Origin: a virus
Taxonomy: Duplodnaviria > Caudoviricetes
IMG/VR virus record: IMGVR_UViG_3300025840_004398
DNA: 64,000 nucleotides
Direction: 5' to 3' (one strand)
Part shown: positions 8,384 through 62,724 of the stretch, in pieces
Layout: every line of letters begins with the position of its first letter
How positions within the stretch are numbered: position 1 is the stretch's first letter
Program-made: the position numbers and the translations under genes
The notes under the pieces: generated by a model
Databases searched by the model: none
What the model was told of the DNA's origin: nothing
Seen by the model: the letters and a program-made list of their open reading frames with translations, nothing else

Positions 8384-8754
8384 GTGGTACAAGATACACA
8401 AATGCGTTAATCGTTATCTGTATGACCTTTTTGGCATTCACCCTATTCAATGTCAGAGGTTTAAAAACAGATATTCAAGGTTTCAATGAAAGAATTGATA
8501 ACATTGGAGCTGAAATAGATTCTATCCAAACTATGAACAAGGAATTGGATGGTTTAATAGAATCGTTACACACAGAACTCGAACTAATCGATGGTGATAT
8601 AGATAGAGTACAAAACAACATTTTTACAATAAGGAGAAATACAGATGAGAAAAAGAATTCTGTTGATAATCTTACTATTAGTGAGCTTCAAGAGTTTTTC
8701 GCAAAACGATACGATAGTATCCTTACGAGAACCAGTAGCGAAACTAGTAATTAA
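8380..8754 (+). CDS. Membrane-anchored coiled-coil protein (i-spanin-like)
   Basis: N-terminal hydrophobic helix ALIVICMTFLAFTLFNV followed by about 90 aa of heptad-rich sequence. Confidence 0.55.
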   Translation: MSGTRYTNALIVICMTFLAFTLFNVRGLKTDIQGFNERIDNIGAEIDSIQTMNKELDGLIESLHTELELIDGDIDRVQNNIFTIRRNTDEKKNSVDNLTISELQEFFAKRYDSILTRTSSETSN

Positions 8755-9046: not shown

Positions 9047-9047
9047 T

Positions 9048-10640: not shown

Positions 10641-10643
10641 CTC

Positions 10644-10653
10644 TATATTTATA
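10644..10653 (+). promoter_or_regulatory. Putative late promoter box TATATTTATA followed by an AGGAG RBS (10658-10662)
   Basis: Recurrent motif directly after the terL stop. Confidence 0.55.
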
Positions 10654-10669
10654 CATTAGGAGAATAAAT

Positions 10670-11059
10670 ATGATATCATTACAAGAATTACTTAACGAAG
10701 AAATACACACAGAAGAATATATCGTAGAAAATTATCACGATATTAAAGAATTCTGTGAATTTATGAAAGAATACAAAGATGATATGAATGAGGCAGAGTA
10801 TCAAGGTAGAACAGTAAAACTTGGTAAACCAATGAGAGGTGATGTCAAGAAATTCAAAGTATATGTTAAAAATCCCCAAGGAAACGTTGTAAAAGTAAAT
10901 TTTGGACATGGTGGAACTTCTGCAAAAAAGCAAGGAGAGAAAACAATGAAAATCAAAAAGTCCGACCCTGAAAGAAGAAAGGCATTCAGAGCAAGACACA
11001 ACTGTGATAATCCAGGTCCAAGACACAAAGCAAGATATTGGTCTTGTAGAGCATGGTAA
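10670..11059 (+). CDS. Small basic virion-associated hypothetical protein with an N-terminal Glu-ending tag
   Basis: AGGAG RBS; acidic N-terminus then basic domain KKFKVYVK...KVNFG...RRKAFRARHNC...KARYWSC. Confidence 0.75.
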   Translation: MISLQELLNEEIHTEEYIVENYHDIKEFCEFMKEYKDDMNEAEYQGRTVKLGKPMRGDVKKFKVYVKNPQGNVVKVNFGHGGTSAKKQGEKTMKIKKSDPERRKAFRARHNCDNPGPRHKARYWSCRAW

Positions 11060-11101
11060 AAACAAAATTAATAAAGGTTATAAATTAAAAAACAATAGAA
11101 A

Positions 11102-12832: not shown

Positions 12833-12854
12833 ATTACCTTAACTTTTATAAATT

Positions 12855-12864
12855 TATATTTATA
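12855..12864 (+). promoter_or_regulatory. Putative late promoter box TATATTTATA
   Basis: Recurrent intergenic motif. Confidence 0.55.
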
Positions 12865-12889
12865 ATAGAGTAATTTTATATATTTGTAA

Positions 12890-13774
12890 TTGGAAATTAT
12901 TAAAATGAGAAAAATTAGACATTCAAAATTTAAAAATACGGGTTTTCTGTTTGAAATACTAACCCGTCAGATTACACTCGAAGTCTTGAATGGTGGTGAC
13001 GAAAAAGCTAAAGAAATCGTAAGAGAATTCTTTGGTGGAAAAACTGAACTTGCCAAAGAACTTCGTTTGTTTAATCTATTAATTAACGAAAAATATAACT
13101 CAGAAACCAAAGCTGAAAAATTTATTGATGCTATATTAGAAGCACACACTAAAATCAATTACTCAAAACTTAAAAGAGAAAAATTCAATCTTGTTAAATC
13201 AATTAAAGAAACTTTTGAGATTGATAATCTTTTATCTTCACCTGTTACCAATTATAAAATACTTGCTTCTATTCATAAATTATTCGAAGGTAAAAAGAAC
13301 GATATTCTTGATGTAAAAGATATATTTGATTCTAAACTTACTATCGTTGAACATATTTCCAACTCAACTCCATCTCTTAAACAAAAAGAGGATAAACTTG
13401 TTGAAGATTACAAAAAACAAGAAAAAGATTTAAGATTACTCACTTACAAAATTCTTGTAGAAACTTTCAACAACAAATATACTAATTTAAATGATTCACA
13501 AAAATCATTATTAAGAGAGTATATTAACAACATTACTAATACATCGAAATTCGGTGAGTACTTTGAGAAAGAATTGATTAGTACAATCACAGAATTACAC
13601 GATTTGTATAAAGGAATGAAGGATAAGATTACAAAAATTAAATTGCGTGAAACTATTAATGTTTTGAAAAAACAAAAACTCGGTAAAAAAATTACTGATG
13701 AACAAGTTTCAGCTTTAATGATGTCTTATGAATTAGTAAAGGAGATAAAAAGTGTCAATGGAAAGATATCTTAA
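12890..13774 (+). CDS. Helical hypothetical protein in the head module (start may be MRKIRHSKF at 12905)
   Basis: 294-aa ORF between portal and prohead protease. Confidence 0.75.
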   Translation: MEIIKMRKIRHSKFKNTGFLFEILTRQITLEVLNGGDEKAKEIVREFFGGKTELAKELRLFNLLINEKYNSETKAEKFIDAILEAHTKINYSKLKREKFNLVKSIKETFEIDNLLSSPVTNYKILASIHKLFEGKKNDILDVKDIFDSKLTIVEHISNSTPSLKQKEDKLVEDYKKQEKDLRLLTYKILVETFNNKYTNLNDSQKSLLREYINNITNTSKFGEYFEKELISTITELHDLYKGMKDKITKIKLRETINVLKKQKLGKKITDEQVSALMMSYELVKEIKSVNGKIS

Positions 13775-14462
13775 TGAACTTATCGATGAACTAATTCAAG
13801 AAATTGAACAAGAATTAGATGAAACAAATGCAACAGGCAATATTGCTGGGTATAATGTGCCTGGTGCTTTTTCTAATGGTGGTTCTAAAGATAAAAAAAG
13901 AAAGAAAAAAATCTCAACTCAATTTGGAATGAAAATTGTTGGTAAAATCGATGAAGATGGAATCAACGAAGCAATAACAAAAATCTCTTCTTCTAACTTT
14001 AAAAAACTTGAAGCAGGTATTAAGAAAATAAACCCAAGAATTAAAATTTCTTTAAACTCATCTGCACCTGGTGGATTTGAAATCCAAATACCAGATGATA
14101 GTAAATGGGAACTACATACTGATAAAGTTCAACAACTAACTACCAAAATTACAGGTGACCATAGAAATGGTAGAATCTTTTACGAAGGTATCAATGAAGC
14201 TAAAGTAAAAAGACCAGTAAATCGTTGGTTAGAATTAAAAAACGATGAAACCATGCATCCTCACAAGAAGATGGCAATGGGTTTAAAAGAATTAAAATAC
14301 CAATTACGAGAAGTAGAGAAGTTTTTCTCTTGGTACAATAAAATCAAAACCATGAACGAGTTGGACTCTCAGAACTATTGGAAAAGAACAAATAATCATA
14401 TTTATAAGATAAAGGAGAGGTTAATCAACATCGCCAAAACTATAAAGGAAATCGAAAAATGA
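13752..14462 (+). CDS. Head-module hypothetical protein with several (L/I)xE-delimited segments
   Basis: AGGAG upstream; ELDE|TNATGNIAGY, GINE|AIT, GINE|AKV. Confidence 0.7.
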   Translation: MSMERYLNELIDELIQEIEQELDETNATGNIAGYNVPGAFSNGGSKDKKRKKKISTQFGMKIVGKIDEDGINEAITKISSSNFKKLEAGIKKINPRIKISLNSSAPGGFEIQIPDDSKWELHTDKVQQLTTKITGDHRNGRIFYEGINEAKVKRPVNRWLELKNDETMHPHKKMAMGLKELKYQLREVEKFFSWYNKIKTMNELDSQNYWKRTNNHIYKIKERLINIAKTIKEIEK

Positions 14463-14779
14463 AAATATCAAGAGATAGATTAAAAGAAATCGTTAGAGAA
14501 GTGATGGTTGAAGAAACCGAATATCAAGCATTCTTCAAAAAAGCATTAGAAAAAGCTGGAAAATCAATTCCACAAATGTCTGATGAAGAAAAGAAGGCAT
14601 TCTTTAATAAAATCGATGCTACTTGGAAAGGTAGAGGAGAAAAGAACGAAAGATTTGGTAGAGGGCACGAAGGACCTACATTTGGTTCTGCAGATGAACA
14701 AGTATCTGAATTAACAGATGCTCAGAAAAAACTACCACCAGCACTTCAAAAGGCAATTGAGAAAAAAGAAAAAAAATAA
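14459..14779 (+). CDS. Head-module hypothetical protein
   Basis: 106 aa, 4-nt overlap with the upstream stop (ATGA). Confidence 0.7.
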   Translation: MKISRDRLKEIVREVMVEETEYQAFFKKALEKAGKSIPQMSDEEKKAFFNKIDATWKGRGEKNERFGRGHEGPTFGSADEQVSELTDAQKKLPPALQKAIEKKEKK

Positions 14780-14956
14780 ATGACAAAAAGACAATTGTAT
14801 GATATTATCAATGAAGAAATCGTTAATGTTAAAAAAGGCAAGATTAACGAGGAAATCACGAATGAAGATGAAAAACTCATTCGTGAATTGATACGTCAAG
14901 AGGTATCTGCAATTTTCTTTGATTTGTTTAAGAAACGTAAAATGTGGGGAGCATAA
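14780..14956 (+). CDS. 58-aa hypothetical protein (MTKRQLYDIINEEIVNVKKGKINEEITNEDEKLIRELIRQEVSAIFFDLFKKRKMWGA); not in the supplied ORF track
   Basis: Translated by hand; abuts the upstream stop, and its TAA overlaps the next ATG (TAATG). Confidence 0.7.
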   Translation: MTKRQLYDIINEEIVNVKKGKINEEITNEDEKLIRELIRQEVSAIFFDLFKKRKMWGA

Positions 14957-15546
14957 TGAGTAACTTACTAATAGAAACCAGATTATTCGAAGGTAGAGTA
15001 AACGAAGATAGTAGTGGAAGAACTATTGTTAAGGGTATTTTACAAAGAGCTGGTGCAGAAAATCAAAATGGGAGAATCTATCCAAAGGATATTCTTGAAA
15101 GAGAAGCTCAAAAGTACGAAACTCTTATCAAAGAAAGACGTGCTCTTGGTGAATTAGACCATCCTGATTCTTCAGTCATCAACCTAAAGAACGTATCTCA
15201 CAATGTAAGAGAGATTCATTGGGATGGTGATGATTTAGTTGGTACAGTAGAGATATTACCTACACCAAGTGGAAACATCTTAAAAGAATTATTAAAAGCA
15301 GGTATCCTATTAGGTATATCATCTCGTGGTATGGGTTCAGTAGAACCACTATCAGGTGGTAAAGTACAAGTAGGAGAAGATTTTGAGTTAATAGGTTGGG
15401 ATTTTGTATCTAACCCATCAACTCATGGTGCTTTCATGACACCAATGAACGAATCGATTAATAAACAATTAAAAGAACAAGTTGTTTGTGGCGATTATTG
15501 TAAAGCACAAGATATGATGAGAGAAATTATAACTGAATTAAGTTAA
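14956..15546 (+). CDS. gp21: Prohead core protease (T4 gp21-like)
   Basis: LLIE N-terminus, G.LQRA...NQNGR.YP, ALGELDHP, VSH, GISSRG.GS, DFVSNPS; start moved to the ATG at 14956. Confidence 0.93.
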   Translation: MSNLLIETRLFEGRVNEDSSGRTIVKGILQRAGAENQNGRIYPKDILEREAQKYETLIKERRALGELDHPDSSVINLKNVSHNVREIHWDGDDLVGTVEILPTPSGNILKELLKAGILLGISSRGMGSVEPLSGGKVQVGEDFELIGWDFVSNPSTHGAFMTPMNESINKQLKEQVVCGDYCKAQDMMREIITELS

Positions 15547-15548
15547 TT

Positions 15549-15737
15549 ATGGCATTTTCAATACAAGACTATATGTCTAAAAATAAAATTAAGTTAGGAA
15601 CTGTTACCAAAGAAGTTGGTGATAATCCCTATAAAGGTTACAATGATATTCGTAAAACGAATTATGATGTAAAACTAACTGAAGATGGGAAGTTAGACCT
15701 TTACACACACAAAACTGAAACAAAAACATATAAATAG
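15549..15737 (+). CDS. 62-aa hypothetical protein
   Basis: ORF 2 nt after the protease stop with typical codon usage. Confidence 0.6.
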   Translation: MAFSIQDYMSKNKIKLGTVTKEVGDNPYKGYNDIRKTNYDVKLTEDGKLDLYTHKTETKTYK

Positions 15738-15745
15738 GAGTAAAT

Positions 15746-15889
15746 ATGTCAGATTTAACATTAGGTGGTTCAAAGACACATCAAGGAAATAACACAACAC
15801 ATACAGATTCATCTATTGGTGGAAGTAAGACACATAAGGGATATCAGGCATCTCATTCCCCTTCCACACTTGGTGGTTCAAAAAAGTAA
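15746..15889 (+). CDS. 47-aa peptide with three (L/I)GGSK repeats (MSDLTLGGSKTHQGNNTTHTDSSIGGSKTHKGYQASHSPSTLGGSKK); not in the supplied ORF track
   Basis: Translated by hand; AGGAG at 15736-15740; fills the gap between 15737 and 15909. Confidence 0.7.
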   Translation: MSDLTLGGSKTHQGNNTTHTDSSIGGSKTHKGYQASHSPSTLGGSKK

Positions 15890-15908
15890 TTTTAAATAGG
15901 ATAGGATT

Positions 15909-16712
15909 ATGATTAAATTAGGTGGATTAGTAACGTTAAAACCAATCAATGAGGTAGAATATACCCACATTGGATATGGTAAATATAAAGAAAAGGGTAA
16001 AGAAAAAGACCCTCAAGCAGTAACCTATCAAAAAGATGATAATGGTAAATTCACACCTATTTCATCACACGCAGCGGCAGCGAAGGGAGGTGATTCCTCT
16101 GCCGGAAAAGATAAGCCTAAAGTGAATATCTTCGATAAACCTAAAAAAGATAAAGAAGAACCTAAGAAAGATGGTGGTGATGACATATCAACTCCTAATT
16201 CAGTAGCAGGAACTGGTCAAGCAGACCCTAATGTTAATAAGGCAGTTCGTAAAGCAGCTCAGAAAGCTGGAATTACTCCAGGAAAATTAGGTAAAGAAGA
16301 ATACGAAAAGAAAATGGCTCAAGCAGCATATGAAGCCCTAACTGATGCTAACTTCCATACTGAAGCAAGATGGTTGATTGCAGATTTAGAAGGTAAACCA
16401 GAGTTAAGAGAGAAGCCAGAATATCCATCCTTTGATGATAAAGATTATGATGAAAAAATAAAAGCAATTAGAGATAAGTACTATTCTCAATATGCAGATG
16501 ATGTTGATGAAGATGCATATGAATTAGGAGTTAAATCATCTCAAGAAGCTGGATGGGCTGGTGCTACTGCAATTGAAGGTTTGGTATTCGATTTGAAAAT
16601 GAATGGTTCACATAAATTAGCAAACACAATATTAAAATCTTTCAAAGATGCAAATTCATCTCGTAACGAAGGAAGATTAAAAATAGGAAACTTATTACCA
16701 GAGGTAAATTAA
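15909..16712 (+). CDS. Head-module hypothetical protein with an N-terminal tag (MIKLGGLVTLKPINE)
   Basis: 267-aa ORF, charged low-complexity segments. Confidence 0.75.
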   Translation: MIKLGGLVTLKPINEVEYTHIGYGKYKEKGKEKDPQAVTYQKDDNGKFTPISSHAAAAKGGDSSAGKDKPKVNIFDKPKKDKEEPKKDGGDDISTPNSVAGTGQADPNVNKAVRKAAQKAGITPGKLGKEEYEKKMAQAAYEALTDANFHTEARWLIADLEGKPELREKPEYPSFDDKDYDEKIKAIRDKYYSQYADDVDEDAYELGVKSSQEAGWAGATAIEGLVFDLKMNGSHKLANTILKSFKDANSSRNEGRLKIGNLLPEVN

Positions 16713-16713
16713 A

Positions 16714-17100
16714 ATGATAAAATTAAAATCACTTATTCAAGAAGGAACTCATTCTCATGTTGGTATTATTGAACCAAATGGAAAGATTACTTCTGTTTAT
16801 ACTCATTACGATGGTTATCCTGAAAACATGAAACCTGCAATTAAACACCATTTTAAATCTGATAAAGATGTAAAAAATTATATCAAAAAAGGTGGTGCTA
16901 CTGGTATTTACAAAGACAAAGAAGTAGATAGATACTATGGAAGTGGGGGATTTGTTGCAAATGGAAGAGTAAATAATATTAGTGATTATATGCAACAAGC
17001 AGATGAAAAAGGTGGAGCCGATTGGATTTATCTTTATAATACTGCTAAAAAGAAATGGTTTTATGGTAAATATGGAAAACCACTAAAACCACTATACTAA
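16714..17100 (+). CDS. Small protein with a YxHYDGYP motif behind an N-terminal tag (MIKLKSLIQE)
   Basis: GTHSHVGII...SVYTHYDGYP...GADWIYLY motifs. Confidence 0.75.
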   Translation: MIKLKSLIQEGTHSHVGIIEPNGKITSVYTHYDGYPENMKPAIKHHFKSDKDVKNYIKKGGATGIYKDKEVDRYYGSGGFVANGRVNNISDYMQQADEKGGADWIYLYNTAKKKWFYGKYGKPLKPLY

Positions 17101-17113
17101 AAGGAGAATAGAA

Positions 17114-17872
17114 ATGAAATTAACCCAACTCATAAAAGAAAATGAAGAAAGACCTTTATCTACTGAGGTAAAGAGACACTTCCTTGAAATCGTTTCTACT
17201 TACAACAAGTACCAAGAATCGATGGATAGAAAATCTGATATTATCAAAGTAGCAGAAACCCTTGGTGGTATTACTGAAGCTGCTAGAACACTTGCAATCA
17301 AAGAAGCAGGAGATTGGTTCGATAAACACACAGTTAAGAGAAACATGAGTGAATTGGATAAGTTGGGTAAACAATTCGATAAAGTTGCTCTTGAGGCTCG
17401 TGCACTTGACCAAAGAATGGCAGGATTGTACGAAGATATGGGACATATCCTTTCAAGATACTATAAGTTTGGTGAAATCACAGAGGACCAAATGAAACAA
17501 AGATTAGGTATCAAAGAATCTAAAGATGGTGGTTGTGGATGTGGATGTGGCTGTGGTGGTAACAAATCAGTAAACGAAGAAACAATCACAGAGCAACCAG
17601 TAATGATTTCTAAAAGAACAGAAAGTGGAAACATTGTAACTACTTTAAAAGAAGTATCTGATTTAAACGAAGAAGAAGTTAAACTTTATGAGTTTGGTTT
17701 AAAGGTTGAAAAAGTATTGATGAGTGAAAAATCTTGTCCAACTGATGCTTCTAAATGGTCTTACTACAAAGGACAAGCTAAAAAGAAATTCGATGTTTAT
17801 CCATCTGCATACGCTAATGGTTGGGCTGCAAAACAATACAAATCAGCTGGAGGTGGTTGGAAAAACTGTTAA
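17114..17872 (+). CDS. Head-module protein: helical domain, GCGCGCGC segment, C-terminal basic YPSAYANGW module
   Basis: AGGAG RBS; MKLTQLIKE tag; KFDVYPSAYANGWAAKQYK..GGGW. Confidence 0.8.
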   Translation: MKLTQLIKENEERPLSTEVKRHFLEIVSTYNKYQESMDRKSDIIKVAETLGGITEAARTLAIKEAGDWFDKHTVKRNMSELDKLGKQFDKVALEARALDQRMAGLYEDMGHILSRYYKFGEITEDQMKQRLGIKESKDGGCGCGCGCGGNKSVNEETITEQPVMISKRTESGNIVTTLKEVSDLNEEEVKLYEFGLKVEKVLMSEKSCPTDASKWSYYKGQAKKKFDVYPSAYANGWAAKQYKSAGGGWKNC

Positions 17873-17882
17873 GGAGAGAACA

Positions 17883-19787
17883 ATGGCATCAGTAGTAGGT
17901 AAAACAATTTTTTCAGATGGTAAAGGTAAACTGTTCTTCGGTTATTACAAAACCGATGATGCTGTTGAATTTGTAGATTACAAAACTTGGAAGAAACTTT
18001 CTTTCAAAGATGTATCCAAAGGTGATACCAACAAAGAACGAGTAATCAAAGCAATCGTAAAGAACCAAAAACAATTCAATAAGAAAGTTGATTTCAATAT
18101 GTGGGCTAAGAAACAAAAAAGAAGTTTCGAGGACACTATGGATTGGTTTATCCAAAATGGTTGGATTAATAACGTTACCAAAAGAGGAATTAAAGAATCT
18201 GTTGATGTATTATCAATAAACGAAATATTAGTAATAGTAGATAAGTTTGATAAAAGAAAACAAGATTACGGTAAAATTTATTGGAAAGATGGTGGTAGAG
18301 GACCAGGTGATGGTGATATCAACAAGGCAAAAAAAGAATTTGCTAAATTGAGTAAGAAACACAAAGGTTTATCTCTCGTATCAGTTGGTAGAAATAGCAG
18401 GATGTATGATGTAATGGATGAATCAGTAAACGAAGCAATGAAACCATCACAAGTTCGTTCAGCAATTTCAAAAGTTAAAAAAGGACTAATGAGAAAGTGG
18501 AAACAAAAAGGTGGATACGAAAACTTTGGACAAAAAGAACTTTCTCAAATGAAAGATAAGTTTGATTACAATCCATATGGTTCACCTGATGAAAGACAGA
18601 TTTCAAAGATGTTAGATGGATTTGATGATTGGGCAATGAACTACGATGGTAATATGAGAGAAGGTAAAAAAAGATTCAAAAGACAAGATGGTATTGGTAA
18701 AGCAAAATACACTATCTCTTACCACGATGGAAAAAAGAAACACAAAGATGGTAGTGATTTCTTTGATATGAAAATCTTCAAAAACAAAAAAGATTTAAGT
18801 GATTTTGTTGGTTCACTTGTAAAACAAGGATATAAACTAACAAATGAATCAGTAAACGAAGTTAAATATGATACTGCTCTTGCTGACTTTAATAAAGAGT
18901 TAGAAAAAAACTCTGAAGTTAGAAAAGCAGCAAAACATTACAAAAAATCTACAAAAGATGTTGTAAAGGCATTGCAATCAAAAATTAAAGTAAATAGATA
19001 TAGTGATAAATCTATTAAACAAGTATCTATTGATTATAAAGAAGATGGGCCACTTTCAAGTAAAGTATCTATAAAATTATCTAAAGATTACAAACAAAAT
19101 GAATCAGTAAACGAAGATAGAAATTCTAATATGTTCTATGTTCTTTACCAAAAGAAAGGTGTCTTTGGTAAACCTGCAGCAGCTGGATATAAAGATAGAA
19201 AAGATGCTGAAAAATTTGCTAAGAGTTTAGGAAATAATCACAACACAATGATTCTTGATAAACAATCAATGAAGAATGTAAAAGGTGTTGATGTAAACGA
19301 ATCAGCAAGTAAAGAAGCAATGGGTATTGCAGCATTAACTGGTACTCGTGGTTCTGCGGTTCAAGATTTCATTGATAAAAATAGAATCAATAGTAAGAAA
19401 TTATTTAAAGCATTAAAATCAGCAAACCTACAAGGTAGAATTAACTTCGCTAATGGATTAGCTGGTAAACCTGGTAATCCAAACGCAAAACTTACAATCA
19501 AACTTTTTGGTGAATCAGTAAACGAAGCTAAATTTGGTTACAAAGACTCTAAAGCTTCATACATCAAGAAACACAAAGATGAGTATAAACAAGCAGAGAA
19601 AATGAATAATGGGAATGAAAAACGTTTCTACGATTTGTTACAACAAATGGAAGATAAAGTAGGACATCCTAAAACTATGTTATTTATCTCTAATGCACTT
19701 CGTGGTTATGGTGTTGATATGTACAAAGACCCAAAGATTAAAAATCCACAAGATGCACAAGAGGCTCTTTTCTTATTGAGTAAATAA
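17883..19787 (+). CDS. 634-aa putative polyprotein of about 8 small basic modules separated by ESVNE-type linkers
   Basis: AGGAG at 17872-17876 supports the ATG at 17883 rather than 17724; ESVNE x4 plus related linkers. Confidence 0.8.
   Translation: MASVVGKTIFSDGKGKLFFGYYKTDDAVEFVDYKTWKKLSFKDVSKGDTNKERVIKAIVKNQKQFNKKVDFNMWAKKQKRSFEDTMDWFIQNGWINNVTKRGIKESVDVLSINEILVIVDKFDKRKQDYGKIYWKDGGRGPGDGDINKAKKEFAKLSKKHKGLSLVSVGRNSRMYDVMDESVNEAMKPSQVRSAISKVKKGLMRKWKQKGGYENFGQKELSQMKDKFDYNPYGSPDERQISKMLDGFDDWAMNYDGNMREGKKRFKRQDGIGKAKYTISYHDGKKKHKDGSDFFDMKIFKNKKDLSDFVGSLVKQGYKLTNESVNEVKYDTALADFNKELEKNSEVRKAAKHYKKSTKDVVKALQSKIKVNRYSDKSIKQVSIDYKEDGPLSSKVSIKLSKDYKQNESVNEDRNSNMFYVLYQKKGVFGKPAAAGYKDRKDAEKFAKSLGNNHNTMILDKQSMKNVKGVDVNESASKEAMGIAALTGTRGSAVQDFIDKNRINSKKLFKALKSANLQGRINFANGLAGKPGNPNAKLTIKLFGESVNEAKFGYKDSKASYIKKHKDEYKQAEKMNNGNEKRFYDLLQQMEDKVGHPKTMLFISNALRGYGVDMYKDPKIKNPQDAQEALFLLSK
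18420..19526 (+). repeat. Four exact in-frame copies of GAATCAGTAAACGAA (ESVNE) at 18420, 18846, 19101 and 19512; a 14-nt copy at 17565
   Basis: Read directly; spacings 426, 255 and 411 nt. Confidence 0.9.
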
Positions 19788-20152
19788 TGAAACTCCAAGA
19801 ACTATTTACAGAAATTATCGAAGAAAACAGATGTATCCATTGTGGAAACATTGTTAACGAAGATTTAAAAAATTGGTTTAAATCTAAATGGGTAAACATT
19901 GGTAAAAAAGTTGGTGGAAAGCATCCACCTTGTGGAACAAGTGGTTCAAAGAGTGGATACGCTAAATGTGTTCCAGCTGCAAAAGCAAAAACTATGAGTA
20001 AGAAAGAAAAAGAATCTGCAACTCGTAGAAAAAGAGCAGCACAAAACAAGGCAGGAAGAGGTGGAGTAAATTCACCAGGTCAAGGTAAAAAACCAATAAA
20101 CGTTTCAACACATACTAAAGGAAGAAAATCAGGAACTGGTAAAGGTTCTTAA
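19787..20152 (+). CDS. Small basic Cys-containing protein with an N-terminal tag (MKLQELFTE)
   Basis: CIHC, EDLKNWFKSKWV, PCG...YAKCVP motifs; very Lys-rich. Confidence 0.75.
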   Translation: MKLQELFTEIIEENRCIHCGNIVNEDLKNWFKSKWVNIGKKVGGKHPPCGTSGSKSGYAKCVPAAKAKTMSKKEKESATRRKRAAQNKAGRGGVNSPGQGKKPINVSTHTKGRKSGTGKGS

Positions 20153-20165
20153 AAATAAATTTATA

Positions 20166-20175
20166 TATATTTATA
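20166..20175 (+). promoter_or_regulatory. Putative late promoter box TATATTTATA
   Basis: Recurrent motif upstream of the bS21 gene. Confidence 0.55.
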
Positions 20176-20195
20176 GTTACACTAAATAAAGGAGA

Positions 20196-20522
20196 ATGGC
20201 AAAAAACAAAACATTGGTATCGGTCAAAGTAATAAAAGGAGATATCAACAGAGCACTTAAAAAATACAAAAGAAGAGTTAACGATAGTGGACATCTTCTT
20301 GAACTACGAGATAGAAAAACTTATACAAAACCCAAAACCATTCGTAGGAAAGCAAAACAACAAGCAATTAGAGAACAACAGAAAGAAACTATTCTTGGTA
20401 AAATTGCTGATGGTGATAATACTCTAAGGTTTTATACAAAAAAGAAAAAAACCAAACCAAATAAACCCAAAAATAACAATAATCAAGAAAAAACCATAGA
20501 AAACTATGGTTTAAAAATGTAA
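20196..20522 (+). CDS. rpsU: Phage-encoded ribosomal protein bS21 with a C-terminal extension
   Basis: V.V..GDINRALKKYKRRV..SG.L.ELR.R..Y.KP...RR matches the bS21 pattern; located in the head module. Confidence 0.85.
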   Translation: MAKNKTLVSVKVIKGDINRALKKYKRRVNDSGHLLELRDRKTYTKPKTIRRKAKQQAIREQQKETILGKIADGDNTLRFYTKKKKTKPNKPKNNNNQEKTIENYGLKM

Positions 20523-20526
20523 TTGA

Positions 20527-20688
20527 TATACTTATATACATAATAACCCACCTCTATGTGGGTTCTATTTTATTGGTTTATGAATATCCACGATTCTATG
20601 TAGGATGACCGAAACGACCAATTAGTTTAATTTATACATTGAAAATCCCTTAATATTTTCACGAATAATAACGAAAGGTAACTTTATT
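20527..20688 (+). promoter_or_regulatory. TATACTTATA box plus a roughly 150-nt structured leader upstream of scaffold/capsid
   Basis: Hairpins AACCCAC/GTGGGTT (20545-20564), ATCCCAC/GTAGGAT (20586-20607), TGAAAAT/ATTTTCA. Confidence 0.5.
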
Positions 20689-21879
20689 ATGGCAAATTCA
20701 AATTTGTTAAAAGAAGCCATCGCTGATGCTAAAGCTGTTAGAGAAACTGCTATTGCTAATGCAAAGATTGCACTTGAAGAAGCATTTACTCCAAGATTAC
20801 AATCTATCCTTTCTCAGAAACTTCAACAAGAAATGGAAGAAGAAGTAACTGAAGAAGTAGAAGATGTAAACGAGGAAGAAGTAACTGAAGAAGTTTCTGA
20901 AGAAGTAGTTAACGAAGAAGAGATTGAAGAATCTACTGAAGAAGTTAACGAAGAAGAAATCTCTGAAGAATCTGAAGAAGTAACTGAAGGTGAATACACT
21001 GCAGAAGGTGAAGAGCAAATCACTGCTGAATCAGAAGAAGTAACGGAATCGGAAGAAGTTGATGAAGCTTTATCTGTAACTGTTTCTGAAACTGAGGAAG
21101 AAGAAGAAGCTGATGTAAGCGAAGAGGCTGAAGAAGAAGGTGATGAAGTTGAAGAAACTTATCACGAAGAAGAAGAATCAGATGAAGATGAACTTGATTT
21201 AGAAGCTATCATCAGAGAACTTGAAGAAGAACTCGATGATGAAGAAGAAGAACAAGTTGCTGATATCGCTGATGACGCTGTTGCAGGTCATGAAGATGAT
21301 ATGCACGAAGAAGAAGAAGAAGAAGCTGGTGAAGAAGAAGCTGAAGAAGCTGAGGAAGAAGCTGGTGAAGAATCTGAAGAAGATTTAGATGAAGAAATCG
21401 ACCTTAACGAAATCCTAAGAGAAATGGGATACGGTGAGGAAGAAGAATCTGAAGAAGAAGTTTCTGAAGAAGTTGTAGAAGAAACTAACGAACTTGATGA
21501 GGTTAAAGCAGAATTGGAAGAAGCAATGTCTACTATCAAAGAACTTAAATCTACTATCAACGAAGTTAATTTGTTAAACGCAAAACTTCTTTACACTAAC
21601 AAACTATTCCGTTCTTATGACTTAACTAACGAACAAAAAATGAAAGTTGTTGAGACACTAGACAGAACTGGTAACGTAAGAGAAGTAAAATTGGTATTCA
21701 GTACATTAGCTGAATCATTCAAGTTTACTGGAACTACGAAAAAACAAAAACAAACTGCTAAAATCAACGAATCATTCGCATCTAAGCCCGTTGCTTCAAC
21801 TGCTCCTACTAAGGAAGTAATTACTGAGTCAACTAACACGATGGCTGAAAGATTTAAGAAATTGGCTAATATTAATTAA
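20689..21879 (+). CDS. gp22: Prohead scaffold/core protein (T4 gp22-like), extremely Glu-rich
   Basis: Directly upstream of the MCP; conserved-looking termini (LLKEAIADAKAVRE; EVNLLNAKLLY.NKLF) around a long acidic linker. Confidence 0.85.
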   Translation: MANSNLLKEAIADAKAVRETAIANAKIALEEAFTPRLQSILSQKLQQEMEEEVTEEVEDVNEEEVTEEVSEEVVNEEEIEESTEEVNEEEISEESEEVTEGEYTAEGEEQITAESEEVTESEEVDEALSVTVSETEEEEEADVSEEAEEEGDEVEETYHEEEESDEDELDLEAIIRELEEELDDEEEEQVADIADDAVAGHEDDMHEEEEEEAGEEEAEEAEEEAGEESEEDLDEEIDLNEILREMGYGEEEESEEEVSEEVVEETNELDEVKAELEEAMSTIKELKSTINEVNLLNAKLLYTNKLFRSYDLTNEQKMKVVETLDRTGNVREVKLVFSTLAESFKFTGTTKKQKQTAKINESFASKPVASTAPTKEVITESTNTMAERFKKLANIN

Positions 21880-21904
21880 CAAAATTTATTAAGGAGAGAT
21901 AAAA

Positions 21905-23515
21905 ATGGCAAATTTTGATTTATCTAAACTTATGGAAGGAAAGAACCCACAACAAGTAATGTTGTCTGAGACAAGAGAACTTAGAGGTAAATGGGAACAA
22001 ACTGGACTTCTAGAAGGTTTAAACGAGAGAGAACAGTCTCAAATTTCTGTTCTACTTGAAAACCAAGCAAAACAATTGCTTGATGAGTCAACAGCTACTG
22101 GTACTTCTGCAGGTTCAGAAGAGTGGTCAGGTGTTGCACTTCCTTTAGTAAGAAGAATCTTCGGTGAAATTGCATCGAAAGAATTCGTTTCGGTACAACC
22201 GATGAACTTACCTTCAGGACTTATATTTTATTTAGATTTCAAATACGGAACTGCAACAGGTGGTAAATCTACTGGTGCTGCTGGTTCTTTATTTGGTGGT
22301 ACTGGTGGAGCTACTCCAGCAGCTGGATTCGGTCAAACTCAAGCGGCTGAAAACGGTCTTTATGGTGACGGTGCTTACGGATACACAGTAAACGAAACAT
22401 CTGTAACTGGCAAATCAACTGTATCATGGGGTTCTGCTTCATTGGCTGATGTATCTTATGATTCTTCACTTTCTGCTTCAATTGCAGCTGGTGAAATAGC
22501 AAAAGTTACTATCGCACTTTCTGACTTAACTGGAAACGAAGATAGAGATGCAGTACGTTCATTTAGAATTGCTGATTCAGATATTTCTGATTACTATCCA
22601 GCACATACTTCAGAAGATGGAACAAACATTACTTTCATCGTTAAAGCTGATGGTGCTGCTGACCCAGGTACAATAGATACTATCTATTATTCACTACAAC
22701 CAACTGATATCACAAGAGGTGATTTTGAAGATGCTTCTCCATCTGAACCAGCAACTGATATCGGAATTCCAGAAGTTGACCTTGAATTGAAGTCTGAAGC
22801 AATTGTTGCTAAGACAAGAAAATTAAAGGCAGTATGGACTCCTGAACTTGCTCAAGACCTTAACGCTTACCACTCAATTGATGCAGAAGCTGAATTGACT
22901 TCAATGTTATCAGAGTACATCTCATTAGAGATTGACCTTGAAATCCTTGATATGTTAAAAGCTAACGCTCTTACAACTGAGTACTGGTCAGTAACTTTAG
23001 GTGAAGAGTATGATTCAATCGCAGGAACTTGGTCTAACTCAAGTTCAGCAGCTGCTTACACTAAGAACTCTTGGTTCCAAACTCTTGGTGCGAAACTTAA
23101 CAAAGTTTCTAACAAGATTCACCAATTGACTCTTAGAGGTGGTGCTAACTTCGTAGTTGCATCTCCTGATGTATGTACTATCTTAGAATCAATCCCAGGA
23201 TTTACAGTTTCTGCTGATAAAGATGCTTCATCTTTCGCAGCTGGTGTAACTACTGTTGGTTCTATTGCAAACAGATACACAGTTTACAAAAACCCTTACA
23301 TGACTTCAAACGAAATCTTGTTAGGATTTAAAGGAAGCAACTTCCTTGAAACTGGAGCTGTATATGCACCATATGTACCACTTATCATGACACCTTTAGT
23401 GTACGACCCAACTAACTTCACTCCAAGAAGAGGAGTTATGACTCGTTACGCTAAGAAAATGGTAAGACCAGAATTCTATGGTAAAATCTATGTTAAAGAT
23501 TTAGCTAACCTATAA
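21905..23515 (+). CDS. gp23: Major capsid protein (T4 gp23-like)
   Basis: KWEQTGLLEGL, LPLVRRIF, VSVQPM.LPSGLIFYLDF, RKLKA.WT.ELAQDL.AYH, GAVYAPYVPL, GVMTRY; AGGAG RBS. Confidence 0.97.
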   Translation: MANFDLSKLMEGKNPQQVMLSETRELRGKWEQTGLLEGLNEREQSQISVLLENQAKQLLDESTATGTSAGSEEWSGVALPLVRRIFGEIASKEFVSVQPMNLPSGLIFYLDFKYGTATGGKSTGAAGSLFGGTGGATPAAGFGQTQAAENGLYGDGAYGYTVNETSVTGKSTVSWGSASLADVSYDSSLSASIAAGEIAKVTIALSDLTGNEDRDAVRSFRIADSDISDYYPAHTSEDGTNITFIVKADGAADPGTIDTIYYSLQPTDITRGDFEDASPSEPATDIGIPEVDLELKSEAIVAKTRKLKAVWTPELAQDLNAYHSIDAEAELTSMLSEYISLEIDLEILDMLKANALTTEYWSVTLGEEYDSIAGTWSNSSSAAAYTKNSWFQTLGAKLNKVSNKIHQLTLRGGANFVVASPDVCTILESIPGFTVSADKDASSFAAGVTTVGSIANRYTVYKNPYMTSNEILLGFKGSNFLETGAVYAPYVPLIMTPLVYDPTNFTPRRGVMTRYAKKMVRPEFYGKIYVKDLANL

Positions 23516-23537
23516 TCTTTAGTTTATCATAATTCTT

Positions 23538-23565
23538 AAAAAGGGGACTTCGGTCCCCTTTTTTT
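23538..23565 (+). terminator. Rho-independent terminator after the MCP
   Basis: GGGGAC-TTCG-GTCCCC stem (cUUCGg tetraloop) plus 7 T. Confidence 0.95.
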
Positions 23566-23594
23566 ATTCTACACACTCTCCTTTTTAACTAACT

Positions 23595-23604
23595 TATATT
23601 TATA
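23595..23604 (+). promoter_or_regulatory. Putative late promoter box TATATTTATA
   Basis: Recurrent motif right after a terminator and upstream of an AGGAG-led gene. Confidence 0.6.
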
Positions 23605-23638
23605 GTAGTATAATTGTATAAGTAAAGGAGAGAAATTT

Positions 23639-24790
23639 ATGTCTCAAGCAAGAATTTGGACAGGTTCAACAACATTCACTTCAGGTTCATCAACCCCATT
23701 TGGAATATATGATAGTGATTCATCTTTTCAATCAGACGCACCTAAAGTTGCTTCTTGGTGTGCTAAAAGATTGGGTTACCCAATTATTGATATAGAACTA
23801 CAAGGAGATAATTTCTTTGCTGTATTTGAAGAAGCAGTTTCAGAGTATTCTGCACAAGTAAATCAATTTAATATACGAAACAACCTTGGTTCTCTTGAAG
23901 GAAAACCAACAGGTACAAATTATACTCACCAATCAGTAAATGGTTCTGAATTAAACAATGTAATCACAATCAACGAAGGGTATGGTACTCTTGCAAACGT
24001 TGGTGGTAGAACTGATATTAAAAAAGGATATGTTACCGTAGGAACTGGTTCTCAAGAATATGATTTACAAACTCTTTGGGCAGATGTAAGTGAAAGTGGT
24101 GAAAGAATTGATGTAACCAAAGTATATTACGAAGCAACTCCTGCAATCAATAGATTCTTCGACCCTTATTCAGTAAGTGGACAAGGAACACTTAACTTAA
24201 TTGATGAGTTTGGGTTTGGTTCATTCTCACCAGCAGCACAATTTATATTGATGCCAATTTACGAGGATGCTTTAAGAATTCAACAGATAGAATTTAATGA
24301 CCAATTCAGAAAATCTGCACATACTTTTAATATTGTAAATAATAAAATACAAATTTTTCCAAAACCAACAAAATCATATAACTTATGGTTTGAATACATG
24401 GTTAAAAAAGATTTTAGAGAAAATTCTACTGTTGTATTGGATGGAGTAGTATCAGATTACTCAAACATTGGATATAACTTCGCTGAATACACTAATATCA
24501 ACGATGTTGGTAAACAATGGATTAGAAAATATACACTTGCACTTGCAAAAGAGATGTTAGGTGCAATTAGAGAAAAGTACAATACAGTACCAATTCCTGG
24601 TTCAGAAGTTTCTTTAGATGGTGCAGCTTTAAGAGCAGAAGCACAAACAGAAAAAGATTCTTTAATAGAACAATTGAGAGAAAACCTCAATGAAGTAAGT
24701 AAAAAACAAAGAATGGAGAACGAAGCTGCAATGGTTGACCAACAACAACAAATCATTCAGAAAGTTCCTCTAAACATTTATATAGGATAA
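23639..24790 (+). CDS. gp13: Neck protein (T4 gp13-like)
   Basis: KRLGYPIIDIEL N-terminal motif, WIRKYTLALAKEMLG.IR.KY..VPIPG..V.LDG; position after the MCP. Confidence 0.8.
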   Translation: MSQARIWTGSTTFTSGSSTPFGIYDSDSSFQSDAPKVASWCAKRLGYPIIDIELQGDNFFAVFEEAVSEYSAQVNQFNIRNNLGSLEGKPTGTNYTHQSVNGSELNNVITINEGYGTLANVGGRTDIKKGYVTVGTGSQEYDLQTLWADVSESGERIDVTKVYYEATPAINRFFDPYSVSGQGTLNLIDEFGFGSFSPAAQFILMPIYEDALRIQQIEFNDQFRKSAHTFNIVNNKIQIFPKPTKSYNLWFEYMVKKDFRENSTVVLDGVVSDYSNIGYNFAEYTNINDVGKQWIRKYTLALAKEMLGAIREKYNTVPIPGSEVSLDGAALRAEAQTEKDSLIEQLRENLNEVSKKQRMENEAAMVDQQQQIIQKVPLNIYIG

Positions 24791-24794
24791 AACG

Positions 24795-25355
24795 ATGCCG
24801 AAGTTTTTCAACGCAAAAGATTTGGATTTCATCAAAACTATCTCCGAAGAGATAGTGGATTATGTGGTAGAACAAGCAGTTGTTCTATTCAAGGTATCTG
24901 TTGGTGAAACTAAAACCAATTTATATGGTGAATCGTTGGGAAAAGTTTGGAGAGCCCCTTCTACTTTAATGTGTATTGTGGATAGAGAACCACAAAACAT
25001 TGTTTATGAAGGATTTGGAGCAGATAAAACTCAGACAGTAGAATTTAGGTTCAATATTCAGAGATTGAGAGATACATCTTATTCAGTACCAAAAGTTAGA
25101 GATATAAATGGAACTTTAATACCAACCGAAGCAATCCAAAACACCACAGTTGGTTATCCGGAGATTGGTGATGTTATATTATTTGATGAATCATATTACG
25201 AAGTAGGACATATAACCGCTAACGCATTAGTTGGTGGACAACCTGAGATATACGACCAAGAAAACTCTACATTTGAAGATGCAAGAGCAACTTTAATTTG
25301 TCAAGCAGTTATGGTTAGAAAATCTCAAGTACAAATAGAGGATAGGATTTACTAA
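24795..25355 (+). CDS. Neck/head-closure protein (T4 gp14-like)
   Basis: NLYGES, P..GD.ILF...YYEV; synteny gp13-gp14-gp15. Confidence 0.6.
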   Translation: MPKFFNAKDLDFIKTISEEIVDYVVEQAVVLFKVSVGETKTNLYGESLGKVWRAPSTLMCIVDREPQNIVYEGFGADKTQTVEFRFNIQRLRDTSYSVPKVRDINGTLIPTEAIQNTTVGYPEIGDVILFDESYYEVGHITANALVGGQPEIYDQENSTFEDARATLICQAVMVRKSQVQIEDRIY

Positions 25356-26479
25356 TGGCAGTTGACCCGTTAAGAAAAGTACCCATCAATCGTGGGGAAG
25401 AAATTAAGAGAGAACCTATTGAAATAGGGAAGGGTGTAAAACTCTATGATGTTGATTTAGCAATAGCTGAACACATGATAGATACTGTTGTGCCTACTGT
25501 TGAGGTATTTAGAGAAAAGGTAAAGATACCTGTACTATATGGTAACCCAGAAAGATGGACTTCGGTACAAAAAGAAGGATATCTACGAGATAAGAAAGGT
25601 CAGTTACAGATTCCTTTGATTATGTTTAAAAGAAACTCGATTGCAAGAGATGATTCCTTTGCAAATACAATGAATCGTCATGTTTCTTATTCTAGTGTTT
25701 CTAAATTCTCAAAAAAACATAAATACGATAGATTTTCTCAAATGACTGGTACTCAAAGACCTGTTGAGATTTATGATGTAGTAATGCCCGACTATGTATC
25801 AATTACTTATGAGGTAATGATATGGACCGATTTTACAGAACACATGAATCAGATAGTAGAAGCATTTCAATATGCAACAGATGAGTATTGGGGAGATAAA
25901 AGTGGATTCAAATTTAGAACTCGTATAGATTCTTTCGATAATACTACCGAAGTTGGTGAAGGAACTCAAAGAATTGTTAGAACTTCATTCACAATGGTTG
26001 TAAATGCATACCTTCTACCAGAACAATTTGATAATCGTTCAACTCACAAAAAATCGCTTTCACCAAAGAAAGTTGTTTGGGGTATTGAAACAGATTTAAC
26101 TGGTCTTGGGGGTTCTTCTACAAATAGTATTTCAAAACAAAAAATGTATAATGAATATTCTGATATAATTGATTTTATGTCTATTCGTGGGTCTAAAGAA
26201 GCAACATTCATAGATGCAGACACAGTAAAATTAGAAAATGTAGAGTTACCAAAGTTACCACCGGAATTAAATGGTGTATTTGATACTAACGATTGGTTTA
26301 GAGTTTATATAAATGGAGTATATATTCCACCTACAAAATATACATACAATGGTTCTTATGTAGATAATGAAATTGTATTTAATTTTTCAACAGGTTCATC
26401 AGCAACCACAACCGATTTAGGTTATATACTTGAATCAACAGATGAGTTTGGTGTAACTGGTAAATTTATAGAATTATAA
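25355..26479 (+). CDS. Tail terminator/sheath stabiliser (T4 gp15-like) with a C-terminal extension
   Basis: KIPVLYGNPERW, IPLIMFKR, PDYV.ITYE..IWT...HMNQIVE; synteny. Confidence 0.65.
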   Translation: MAVDPLRKVPINRGEEIKREPIEIGKGVKLYDVDLAIAEHMIDTVVPTVEVFREKVKIPVLYGNPERWTSVQKEGYLRDKKGQLQIPLIMFKRNSIARDDSFANTMNRHVSYSSVSKFSKKHKYDRFSQMTGTQRPVEIYDVVMPDYVSITYEVMIWTDFTEHMNQIVEAFQYATDEYWGDKSGFKFRTRIDSFDNTTEVGEGTQRIVRTSFTMVVNAYLLPEQFDNRSTHKKSLSPKKVVWGIETDLTGLGGSSTNSISKQKMYNEYSDIIDFMSIRGSKEATFIDADTVKLENVELPKLPPELNGVFDTNDWFRVYINGVYIPPTKYTYNGSYVDNEIVFNFSTGSSATTTDLGYILESTDEFGVTGKFIEL

Positions 26480-26814
26480 TGGCTATTAAAGATTTAAAAA
26501 AAATATTAGAACAAGTACATGAACCAAATGAATATCGTTTAGTTCCACATGATATGAATCATCCATTATATTGGATATGGAAACTCGAAAATGGTAAGAT
26601 GAAGGATTTGGATTCTTTTTTAATACCTTTTCGTAAGGAACACGCACGTTTTGATATATTTATAAATGGTCAGTATATTTTAGAAAGAGATTATATAACC
26701 GAACAAGTTGGTAAGGATTTTCATATTAAATTCATAAAAGCTAACTTTTTTGGAGCATATGATTTGGAAACTAGTGATGATATAAAGTTAGAAGGAGATA
26801 TAAATTTAGTATGA
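26479..26814 (+). CDS. Hypothetical virion protein
   Basis: Translationally coupled 111-aa ORF; FDIFINGQY resembles FRVYINGVY in the upstream gene. Confidence 0.65.
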   Translation: MAIKDLKKILEQVHEPNEYRLVPHDMNHPLYWIWKLENGKMKDLDSFLIPFRKEHARFDIFINGQYILERDYITEQVGKDFHIKFIKANFFGAYDLETSDDIKLEGDINLV

Positions 26815-27176
26815 CAAAAGTTAAACCAAATATTGTAACTCCTTTTGATGATAAACAAAGATTTAAGAATTTGGTTCTTGAAGTAATAAGTGATACATCT
26901 ATTTTTACTCATATACCAGATTCAATTAGTTTGAGTGGTACTTTGTTTAGTTTAACTCTTTCTAATAAAAAGTTTGTGTATGAAGATATAAAAGTCGATA
27001 TTAATTCGGATTATGTAGATGTTTATTTACAAGGTATAAAAAAACCATCAGATACATACTCGGTTACGGATAATGGAACAGATATAATAATTAATTTTAC
27101 TGAAAATATCACATTAAGACCACAAGATATTGTGGTTACTGATTTTTCGGTTAAAGGTAAAATAGTGAGTAGATAA
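26811..27176 (+). CDS. Hypothetical virion protein
   Basis: Coupled 121-aa ORF; VDVYLQG beta-rich motif. Confidence 0.65.
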   Translation: MTKVKPNIVTPFDDKQRFKNLVLEVISDTSIFTHIPDSISLSGTLFSLTLSNKKFVYEDIKVDINSDYVDVYLQGIKKPSDTYSVTDNGTDIIINFTENITLRPQDIVVTDFSVKGKIVSR

Positions 27177-27178
27177 GA

Positions 27179-54480: not shown

Positions 54481-54491
54481 AAGGAATAATT

Positions 54492-54815
54492 ATGTTTTTA
54501 AAATCAAATGACATATTTACATTGGAAAACTTAATATCGGCAAGAGATAAAACTATTGTTATGTTTGGTGTTAAGTGGTGCGAACAGTGCCAATCTATAA
54601 AAAAAGAGTTTATAAAATTAGAACCAACCGAAAGAAGTAGAGATATTGATTTTATTTATTGTGATGTAGATAAAAACCAAAATATTTCGGATTTGGTAGA
54701 AATACAAAAATTACCAACATTTGTTTCTTTTAATAGAACTAACGTAGTATTAAAACACGAAGGTAAAACAAAAAAAGATATTATAAAAACATTAAAGTCA
54801 TTTGCTAAGATATGA
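54492..54815 (+). CDS. Thioredoxin-like protein
   Basis: F..KWCEQC active site, .DVD, I..LPTF..F cis-Pro loop; 107 aa. Confidence 0.85.
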   Translation: MFLKSNDIFTLENLISARDKTIVMFGVKWCEQCQSIKKEFIKLEPTERSRDIDFIYCDVDKNQNISDLVEIQKLPTFVSFNRTNVVLKHEGKTKKDIIKTLKSFAKI

Positions 54816-60326: not shown

Positions 60327-60368
60327 TAAGAGTATATTATACAAAAAATTAACAAGGAGTAATATAAA

Positions 60369-62701: not shown

Positions 62702-62724
62702 GTAGTATAAAGGAGAAATAAAAA

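Follow-up and report, generated by a model that had tools for sequence, protein, structure and literature searches.

A phage bS21 without the Bacteroidia tyrosine, and late genes led by Shine-Dalgarno sequences: a possible switch of ribosome specificity

Ribosomal protein bS21 joins the 30S platform last of all and can be exchanged there. It is the ribosomal protein most commonly encoded by viruses, and to our knowledge no function has so far been shown for a phage-encoded copy. The ribosomes of Bacteroidia are one well-understood case in which a single bS21 residue helps to decide whether Shine-Dalgarno (SD) sequences are read. The window analysed here (64,000 nucleotides of the Caudoviricetes record IMGVR_UViG_3300025840_004398, a large aquatic phage known from uncultured material) carries a bS21 gene at positions 20196-20522 and AGGAG upstream of many of its late genes, and the question that this locus raises is whether a phage could use its own bS21 to make a host ribosome read SD sequences. 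A first-pass annotation had proposed just this, namely that the phage bS21 replaces the host protein, frees the anti-SD and selectively boosts SD-bearing virion mRNAs. We find that a switch of this kind, acting late in infection, is the best-supported of the readings compared. It is put forward tentatively, at somewhat less than an even chance, and both the incorporation of the phage protein and the liberation of the anti-SD are steps that we infer.

The open reading frame (ORF) encodes a 108-aa protein that matches PF01165 (Ribosomal_S21) at 40.7 bits against a cut-off of 27, with residues 9-61 aligned to profile positions 1-54 of 55; a second family match is to PHROG 21469. Among solved structures, the best matches are bS21 chains from the ribosomes of P. 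gingivalis (9I5V) and F. johnsoniae (7JIL) and from a ribosome of the E. coli type. Judged by its sequence, the ORF encodes a genuine bS21, which is predicted to bind the 30S subunit. The Pfam match and the neighbouring genes also bear out the earlier placing of a bS21 homologue between the head cargo genes and the genes for the scaffold and the major capsid protein (MCP).

20196..20522, + strand: phage bS21 gene, 108 aa, with a core (residues 9-61) and a basic C-terminal extension (residues 60-108)

The C-terminal domain is lysine-rich, with a net charge of +11 and a pI of 10.3. There are 274 close homologues of the protein and 24 IMG/VR loci, and the gene occupies the same slot in the related genome G001 and in 38 further MCP-related loci.

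In F. johnsoniae, Tyr54 of bS21 stacks on A1534 where the 3' tail of the 16S rRNA turns into the bS18/bS6 pocket, and Ile55 makes a van der Waals contact with the tail (PMC7797042). Tyr54 helps to lock the anti-SD in the pocket and Bacteroidia ribosomes therefore ignore SD sequences. Gapless phmmer alignments of the window protein to 7jil_z and 9i5v_9 place F. johnsoniae Tyr54 opposite Arg59 and Ile55 opposite Glu60. There is no gap between the KP motif and the Tyr54 site, and the E. coli residue at the site is Lys.

20370..20375, + strand: codons for Arg59-Glu60, the positions of F. johnsoniae Tyr54-Ile55 in the gapless alignment

The phage protein has neither the aromatic residue at position 54 nor the Ile55 contact of the Bacteroidia-type, anti-SD-sequestering bS21. 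The first-pass annotation was right that the helix after the KP motif lacks an aromatic residue, with the caveat of a Phe-Tyr pair further on, which is weighed below. Arg59 is invariant in the 120 close homologues (120/120; 69-100% identity) and Glu60 is Glu in 117 of them. The residue at the Tyr54 site is Arg in 50, Leu in four and Tyr in three of 61 head-module bS21 sequences of MCP relatives (those with Arg and Tyr are called Arg-type and Tyr-type below). Among the 150 nearest cluster representatives, drawn from 1.8 billion proteins, it is Arg in 69, aromatic in 29 and Lys in 13, and among the 25 best cellular bS21 sequences of the phylum Bacteroidota it is Tyr in 17 and His in one. All 61 Bacteroidetes-phage bS21 proteins of Chen et al. 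have an aromatic residue, so the window clade differs from them. A C-terminal region that is less basic than that of other phyla counts as a mark of Bacteroidia-type bS21; the C-terminal pI did not separate Tyr-type from Arg-type bS21 in a sample of cluster representatives, in which the two groups overlap.

SD pairing in the window was computed against ACCUCCUU with a threshold of dG <= -7 kcal/mol, the 16S tail of the host being assumed canonical. Strong sites precede 14 of 49 starts in comparison with 2.8% of non-start ATGs, a 10-fold enrichment. AGGAG occurs 72 times on the + strand; 14 of these copies are found at a distance of 0-14 nt from one of the 51 starts, as against an expectation of about 0.9. 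The consensus is (A/T)AAGGAGA at 6-9 nt from the start and the spacers of the strong sites are 5-9 nt, so that complementarity to the 16S tail lies at the distance of SD-led initiation and above background. An independent gene caller gave the same gene starts. All ten AGGAG positions listed in the first-pass annotation are present with spacers of 5-9 nt, and there are four more, at 8632, 13740, 20190 and 26793. Its statement that the sugar genes rely on coupling also agrees with our data: the first five overlap through their start and stop codons and have no SD. The strong sites include the following.

21892..21896, + strand: AGGAG of the MCP gene (21905-23515), 8 nt before the start, dG -7.9 kcal/mol, kept upstream of the MCP gene in close relatives
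60355..60359, + strand: AGGAG of the tail sheath gene (60369-62669), 9 nt before the start
62711..62715, + strand: AGGAG of the tail tube gene, gp19 (62725-63213), 9 nt before the start
17872..17876, + strand: AGGAG of the head-cargo polyprotein gene (17883-19787), 6 nt before the start, operon-internal and with no late motif directly upstream
23626..23630, + strand: AGGAG of the gp13-like neck gene (23639-24790), 8 nt before the start
8632..8636, + strand: strong SD site; the other strong sites are at 10658, 13740, 15736, 17102, 26793, 31865 and 58611

Strong SDs are thus found on the genes for the MCP, sheath, tube, gp13-like neck protein and cargo polyprotein; at the genes for the portal, TerL, scaffold and fibres the SD is weak or absent. 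Strong SDs also stand before operon-internal genes that have no promoter motif, so the SD tracks start codons and not promoters.

The window contains late genes only, and the comparison of early with late genes was therefore made on G001, a syntenic IMG/VR genome of 275,970 bp that is rated 100% complete, has 73-83% nucleotide identity to the window and carries bS21 in the same place. In G001, an SD was counted as AGGA, GGAG or GAGG with a spacer of 3-13. Two classes of motif precede the genes. The core of the late motif, TAYTTATA, is found 11-78 nt ahead of starts 14 times in the window and 47 times in G001, and it is 7-16-fold enriched upstream of starts. The second, host-type class in G001 is TT(T/A)GG-N~15-TTCG-TATATTT(G/A), with 27 exact TTCGTATA sites of which 24 are upstream of starts. 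The first gene after a late motif has an SD in 21 of 44 cases and the first gene after a host-type motif in two of 32 (p = 1e-4). When all genes in the operons are counted, the values are 31% for late-motif operons and 9% for host-type operons (p = 5e-7), and the background at non-start ATGs is 8%. The first-pass annotation had proposed a genome-wide comparison of SD frequency in late and early genes; run on G001 and not on the phage's own genome, this gave the predicted result, 48% for late-first against 6% for host-type-first genes.

Other relatives extend this picture. G002 (252,603 bp) shows the same direction more weakly, with SDs on nine of 37 late-first and one of 26 host-type-first genes; TGAGA, the alternative SD of Flavobacteriales, was looked for in this SD-poor genome and no such motif was enriched before starts. 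The Arg-type bS21 gene of G002 (C1:211157-211315) lies about 105 kb from the head module, has lost the SD leader and ends at 86 aa. SD-less early genes are A-rich at positions -11 to -13, as are those of the Flavobacterium phage immuto. This phage, cultured on Flavobacterium sp. LMO8, has 72% nucleotide identity in the MCP gene and 54.5% amino acid identity in TerL; it has a related head module and both motif classes, and it has no bS21. SDs are found on none of its 27 late-first genes and on 3% of all its starts, below its own background of 17%. Cellulophaga phages are devoid of SDs according to published work. G001, G002, immuto and the Microcystis phage Mel-JY01 share the early promoter TTG-N~15-TTC(G/T)-TATATT(T)(G/A), in which the TTCG immediately ahead of the -7 box is conserved. 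They also have the late motif TAYTTATA in common, and this is the T4 late promoter read as its reverse complement. No bS18 homologue was found in any of these four genomes.

The bS21 gene lies in a T4-like head module with this gene order: TerL, portal, S77 prohead protease, small proteins, a 634-aa cargo polyprotein, a 121-aa basic protein, bS21, an acidic scaffold-like protein and a Gp23-type MCP (21905-23515; Pfam Gp23 match of 257 bits). As in the phages of Chen et al., bS21 is thus within the block of TerL, portal, protease and MCP. Every gene of the window, bS21 included, is on the + strand, so bS21 is not reversed relative to this block, unlike the bS21 of those phages, which is on the opposite strand. 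The elements around the gene are as follows.

20164..20175, + strand: late-promoter motif TATATATTTATA (core TAYTTATA) of the bS21 unit, a putative promoter from its position and the enrichment of the motif
20176..20195, + strand: 5' leader of 20 nt, GTTAC...AGGAGA abutting the ATG, unstructured and conserved
20545..20574, + strand: terminator-like element closing the bS21 unit, a hairpin (20545-20564) with a 7-bp stem, four GC pairs and a T-rich tail
20689..21879, + strand: acidic scaffold-like gene, placed as in phage immuto, with a weak SD only (AAAGGT)

With a late motif, a leader and a terminator of its own, bS21 appears to form a separate late unit. The terminator of this unit and a second one at 23538-23563 bound the scaffold-MCP pair. 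The late motif, GTTAC and AGGAGAATG upstream of bS21 are invariant in 13 relatives in which the proteins are about 60-70% identical, and no conserved RNA structure was found in the leader. The first-pass annotation missed the SD-like AGGAG of the bS21 gene itself (20190-20194), which has a dG of -8.0 kcal/mol and a non-canonical spacer of 0-1 nt; the 1-nt spacer recurs in every relative. A spacer of 1 nt is not a working SD geometry and the leader may therefore be a regulatory operator; as a speculation, the ATG-abutting SD could slow initiation by ribosomes once these carry the phage protein.

The proposed mechanism would run as follows. A 'pro-SD' bS21 would be made from its own late transcription unit, with the rRNA-anchoring core retained, Arg-Glu instead of Tyr54-Ile55 and a long lysine-rich tail. 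Late in infection it would enter the host 30S subunit, either by displacing the host bS21 or by filling bS21-free subunits, and the anti-SD in these subunits would be left free. The converted ribosomes would prefer those AAGGAG-led mRNAs that encode the virion proteins present in largest amount (MCP, sheath, tube, neck and head cargo). The early genes, whose leaders are rich in A/T and lack an SD, would be translated by ribosomes that are unmodified and blind to SDs. The Y54A mutation in F. johnsoniae bS21 raises the yield of ribosomes on a strong-SD template 3-fold in vitro and by 70% in vivo and leaves SD-less translation as it was, and ribosomes free of bS21 already read strong SDs (PMC9976891). 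An Arg-type phage bS21 in the 30S subunit should therefore favour AAGGAG-led late mRNAs, and by this analogy the published Y54A experiments make the mechanism credible. A complete two-regime programme, in which Arg-bS21 makes SD-blind ribosomes SD-reading late in infection, the early genes are SD-less, the virion genes SD-led and the ATG-abutting SD of bS21 serves as a feedback brake, is conceivable and more doubtful. Of the switch as originally claimed, what stands is the late-unit bS21, the invariant Arg at the Tyr54 site, the SD enrichment of late genes, the SD-less early genes of G001, the SD-poor immuto without bS21 and the Y54A precedent. The claim falls short on the host and on the causal link, where Arg-type bS21 with few SDs and a failed phylogenetic test count against it.

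Several observations weigh against the switch. The response in F. johnsoniae was limited to extended SDs, AGGA by itself being without effect (PMC9976891), and the phage SDs pair over 5-7 bp at about -8 kcal/mol in comparison with about -20 for rpsU. The SD of the bS21 gene itself, with its 1-nt spacer, looks non-functional next to the 5-9 nt of the other strong sites. The Phe-Tyr pair, which is partly conserved and lies 20 residues beyond the Tyr54 site in the conserved C-terminal extension, could in principle substitute for the missing aromatic residue. Finally, the association between bS21 and SD use is not robust. Across 55 head-module loci the mean SD frequency is 45% with bS21 (n=39) and 21% without (n=16; p = 4e-6), but on the MCP tree only 5-6 independent contrasts remain and a sign test is not significant, so the raw association fails phylogenetic correction. 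Arg-type bS21 is also found in SD-poor relatives (L077, 14%; L101, 5%; and G002, where SDs are weak), three Tyr-type phage bS21 genes are in loci with 24-69% SD (L146, 69%), and the SD of the MCP gene does not differ between loci with and without bS21 (31/35 and 12/16).

These last results suit an explanation in which the phage bS21 merely supplements or mimics the host protein: it would keep the 30S subunits replete, replace degraded or limiting host bS21 or counter a translation-stalling defence, and SD recognition would be unchanged. The late SDs would then have little effect or would act by another route, such as through subunits that naturally lack bS21. Aquatic phages of several host phyla very often encode bS21, and the usual proposal is that it substitutes for the host protein (PMC6375957, PMC9723584), and this account fits the occurrence of Arg-type bS21 with both SD-rich and SD-poor structural modules, the SD of the MCP gene in relatives without a head-module bS21 and the reading of strong SDs by F. 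johnsoniae ribosomes that have no bS21. We consider it unlikely because two results are left unexplained: the invariance of Arg59, given an aromatic residue in all the Bacteroidetes-phage bS21 proteins described earlier, and the enrichment of SDs on late genes here in contrast with their depletion in the bS21-less immuto.

The switch also presupposes an SD-blind host, and indirect evidence suggests that the host is probably a member of the Bacteroidota, within which it favours the Flavobacteriia. The early promoters have the form TTTG-N20-TATATTTG, the Bacteroidota -33/-7 form, which is common to immuto, as are the A-rich positions -11 to -13 of the SD-less early genes, and full TTTG-N19-21-TAnnTTTG matches number 23 in G002 against 3.7 expected and 10 in G001 against 4.2. 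Contigs with a related MCP in metagenome-assembled genomes (MAGs) are labelled Bacteroidota in 17 of 54 cases, and those with the highest identity, 81% and 78%, come from one Flavobacterium and one Flavobacteriales bin, with the caveat that binning follows base composition. At E <= 1e-4 the bS21 core matches 191 of 301 Bacteroidota genomes (63%; best 40.6 bits, 50% identity), 44 of 101 Cyanobacteriota (44%; best 31.8 bits) and 20 of 151 Pseudomonadota (13%; best 32.1 bits). One 'Flavobacterium sp.' MAG bin (G004) holds three phage contigs (C196, C197 and C207) with phage-type bS21 frames of 97-110 aa beside its own 64-aa Tyr-type rpsU.

The alternative is an SD-competent host, an AT-rich aquatic bacterium outside the Bacteroidia such as a cyanobacterium, with a free anti-SD; the basic residue would be that of a normal bS21 and the SDs an ordinary tuning of highly expressed genes. 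Phage Mel-JY01, a cultured relative as close as immuto whose recorded host is Microcystis, has a bS21 in syntenic position that is basic at the Tyr54 site, and weak SDs on about 30% of its genes genome-wide with no split between early and late, and Lys is found at this site in E. coli-type bS21. The early motif also fits a sigma-70-like TTGnnn-N17-TATATT and is thus ambiguous, and the C-terminal marker domain of the type IX secretion system was found in immuto only and not in G001, G002 or Mel-JY01. The protein-atlas taxa of two sugar genes were uninformative on the host, the nearest cellular clusters of one being Pseudomonadota. A 53-column bS21 tree, poorly resolved, puts the window clade among non-Tyr sequences and outside the Tyr-type Bacteroidia clade; the phylogeny that had been suggested as a means of confirming the host therefore did not place the protein inside the Bacteroidia, and it is core similarity that points to Bacteroidota. 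Set against these points, the early genes of G001 are at background SD level (9% against 8%), an uncommon state in a phage whose host uses SDs; the early promoters, which are common to a phage cultured on Flavobacterium, can be extended to the TAnnTTTG form of Bacteroidota; the nearest MAG-binned relatives are in Flavobacterium and Flavobacteriales bins; and the bS21 core is most similar to Bacteroidota bS21. Mel-JY01 itself has a GC content of 34% and the same Bacteroidota-like promoter type, so its Microcystis host label is worth re-checking. On balance an SD-competent host seems rather improbable.

A last idea, that bS21 is packaged as head cargo and enters the next cell with the DNA, where it would act on ribosomes as infection begins, has been raised for other bS21 phages (PMC9723584) and would suit a gene directly after those for the cargo polyprotein and a small basic protein, but it is highly improbable because the protein has no evident cargo-type linker or targeting sequence, the bS21 gene of G002 is far from the head module and an injected pro-SD factor would have no targets among early genes that lack SDs.

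As to the origin of the gene, the Tyr-type bS21 of L119 (IMGVR_UViG_3300007735_000803, 157 kb, the MCP sister of immuto) is nested among Flavobacteriales-like cellular sequences. On sequence grounds it is a separate and recent capture from a host within the same phage group. A chromosomal clade of Arg-type bS21 (KAVREQRRR) is present in the sample of the phylum Bacteroidota, in five genomes with a GC content of 41-50% (G068, G188, G224, G076 and G160). SDs were counted at 21 of 119 in the genomes of this clade and seven of 147 in Tyr-type genomes (p = 0.001), a crude estimate from few lineages.

Other searches with the window protein or DNA yielded little. A tblastn search of cultured phages found no match even though Mel-JY01 has a homologue, which indicates an artefact of sensitivity or filtering, and the bS21 of Pelagibacter phage HTVC008M was likewise not recovered. 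An exact DNA pattern search of viral contigs found no match, and a first scan of genome contigs with phage-specific bS21 peptides confirmed no relative. Two long multi-stretch matches from the search of representatives were tetratricopeptide or other repeat proteins and were rejected as spurious.

Contigs of 23 metatranscriptomic runs (22 studies) cover positions 19700-23600, with word shares of up to 0.87; contigs from RNA libraries indicate presence only and not expression levels or transcript ends, and their depth cannot rank genes. In four metatranscriptomes, word depth summed over the contigs is 200-550 at 20339-23673, across the scaffold-MCP unit between the two terminator-like hairpins, and 5-30 elsewhere in 9000-28999, a hint only that the contigs derive from RNA. 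In each of the four runs, contigs connect 20864 with 17664 by an identical insert of 20 letters. This junction probably reflects either a variant strain or a chimeric assembly caused by the GAA-rich repeats of the acidic scaffold gene. Elsewhere in the window, positions 50563-57283 encode two large proteins of the tail or baseplate, of 1305 and 823 aa, with DUF5122 beta-propeller repeats and two fibre proteins with a C-terminal Peptidase_S74 intramolecular chaperone domain.

If the switch is real, no earlier case would be known of a virus that alters ribosome specificity through protein exchange. The switch would explain how virion proteins outcompete host mRNAs late in infection and would yield an orthogonal tool for translation in Bacteroidota. 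With an SD-using host, the finding shrinks to an ordinary member of a large phage bS21 clade. A phage variant without Tyr54 together with SDs confined to late genes turns a vague idea of ribosome hijacking into a precise experiment, which is feasible with existing F. johnsoniae strains and reporters.

It was known before that phages encode bS21, that the gene lies in the structural module and that it is linked to late expression. In the literature searched we did not find a large phage clade without the Bacteroidia tyrosine, a split in SD use between early and late genes within one genome or the contrast with a bS21-less Flavobacterium relative. The bS21 of freshwater Bacteroidetes myoviruses (Chen et al. 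2022, PMC9723584) resembles the window gene in lying in a structural block with TerL, portal, prohead protease and MCP, in its link to late expression and in its proposed replacement of host bS21. It differs in that all 61 of those proteins are aromatic at the Tyr54 position, which was read as mimicking the host's blocking of the anti-SD, where the window clade has an invariant Arg and Glu for Ile55. The window bS21 is also on the strand of its neighbours, and its late genes have SDs, which were not analysed in that paper. The bS21 of Pelagibacter phage HTVC008M (Mizuno et al. 2019, PMC6375957) also belongs to a T4-like aquatic myovirus and was shown to enter E. coli ribosomes, but it is derived from an alphaproteobacterial host, is 67 aa long and has no link to SD usage. 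The nearest cultured phage, Mel-JY01 (TerL 55.5% identity), has an annotated RpsU (PP395634.1 22183-22410) at the corresponding place in its head module, and the residue at the Tyr54 site is again basic; this protein has 75 aa and no long tail, the GenBank host is a cyanobacterium and weak SDs occur throughout the genome. In Francisella tularensis, alternative bS21 copies alter which mRNAs are translated (PMC9578407), but these paralogues are cellular and not viral and their specificity does not act through sequestration of the anti-SD.

The closest parallel is F. johnsoniae itself, with its Y54A and delta-C mutants and its rpsU autoregulation (Jha 2021, PMC7797042; McNutt 2023, PMC9976891). 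The protein family and the residue position are the same, the bS21 gene has an SD, and loss of Tyr54 or of bS21 leads to better translation of strong-SD mRNAs. The F. johnsoniae system is, in contrast, a cellular feedback loop on a single gene with a 13-bp SD, and the SD of the phage bS21 gene abuts the ATG. In comparison with this system, the phage would supply a natural 'Y54R' together with SDs of 5-7 bp on about 30% of its structural genes.

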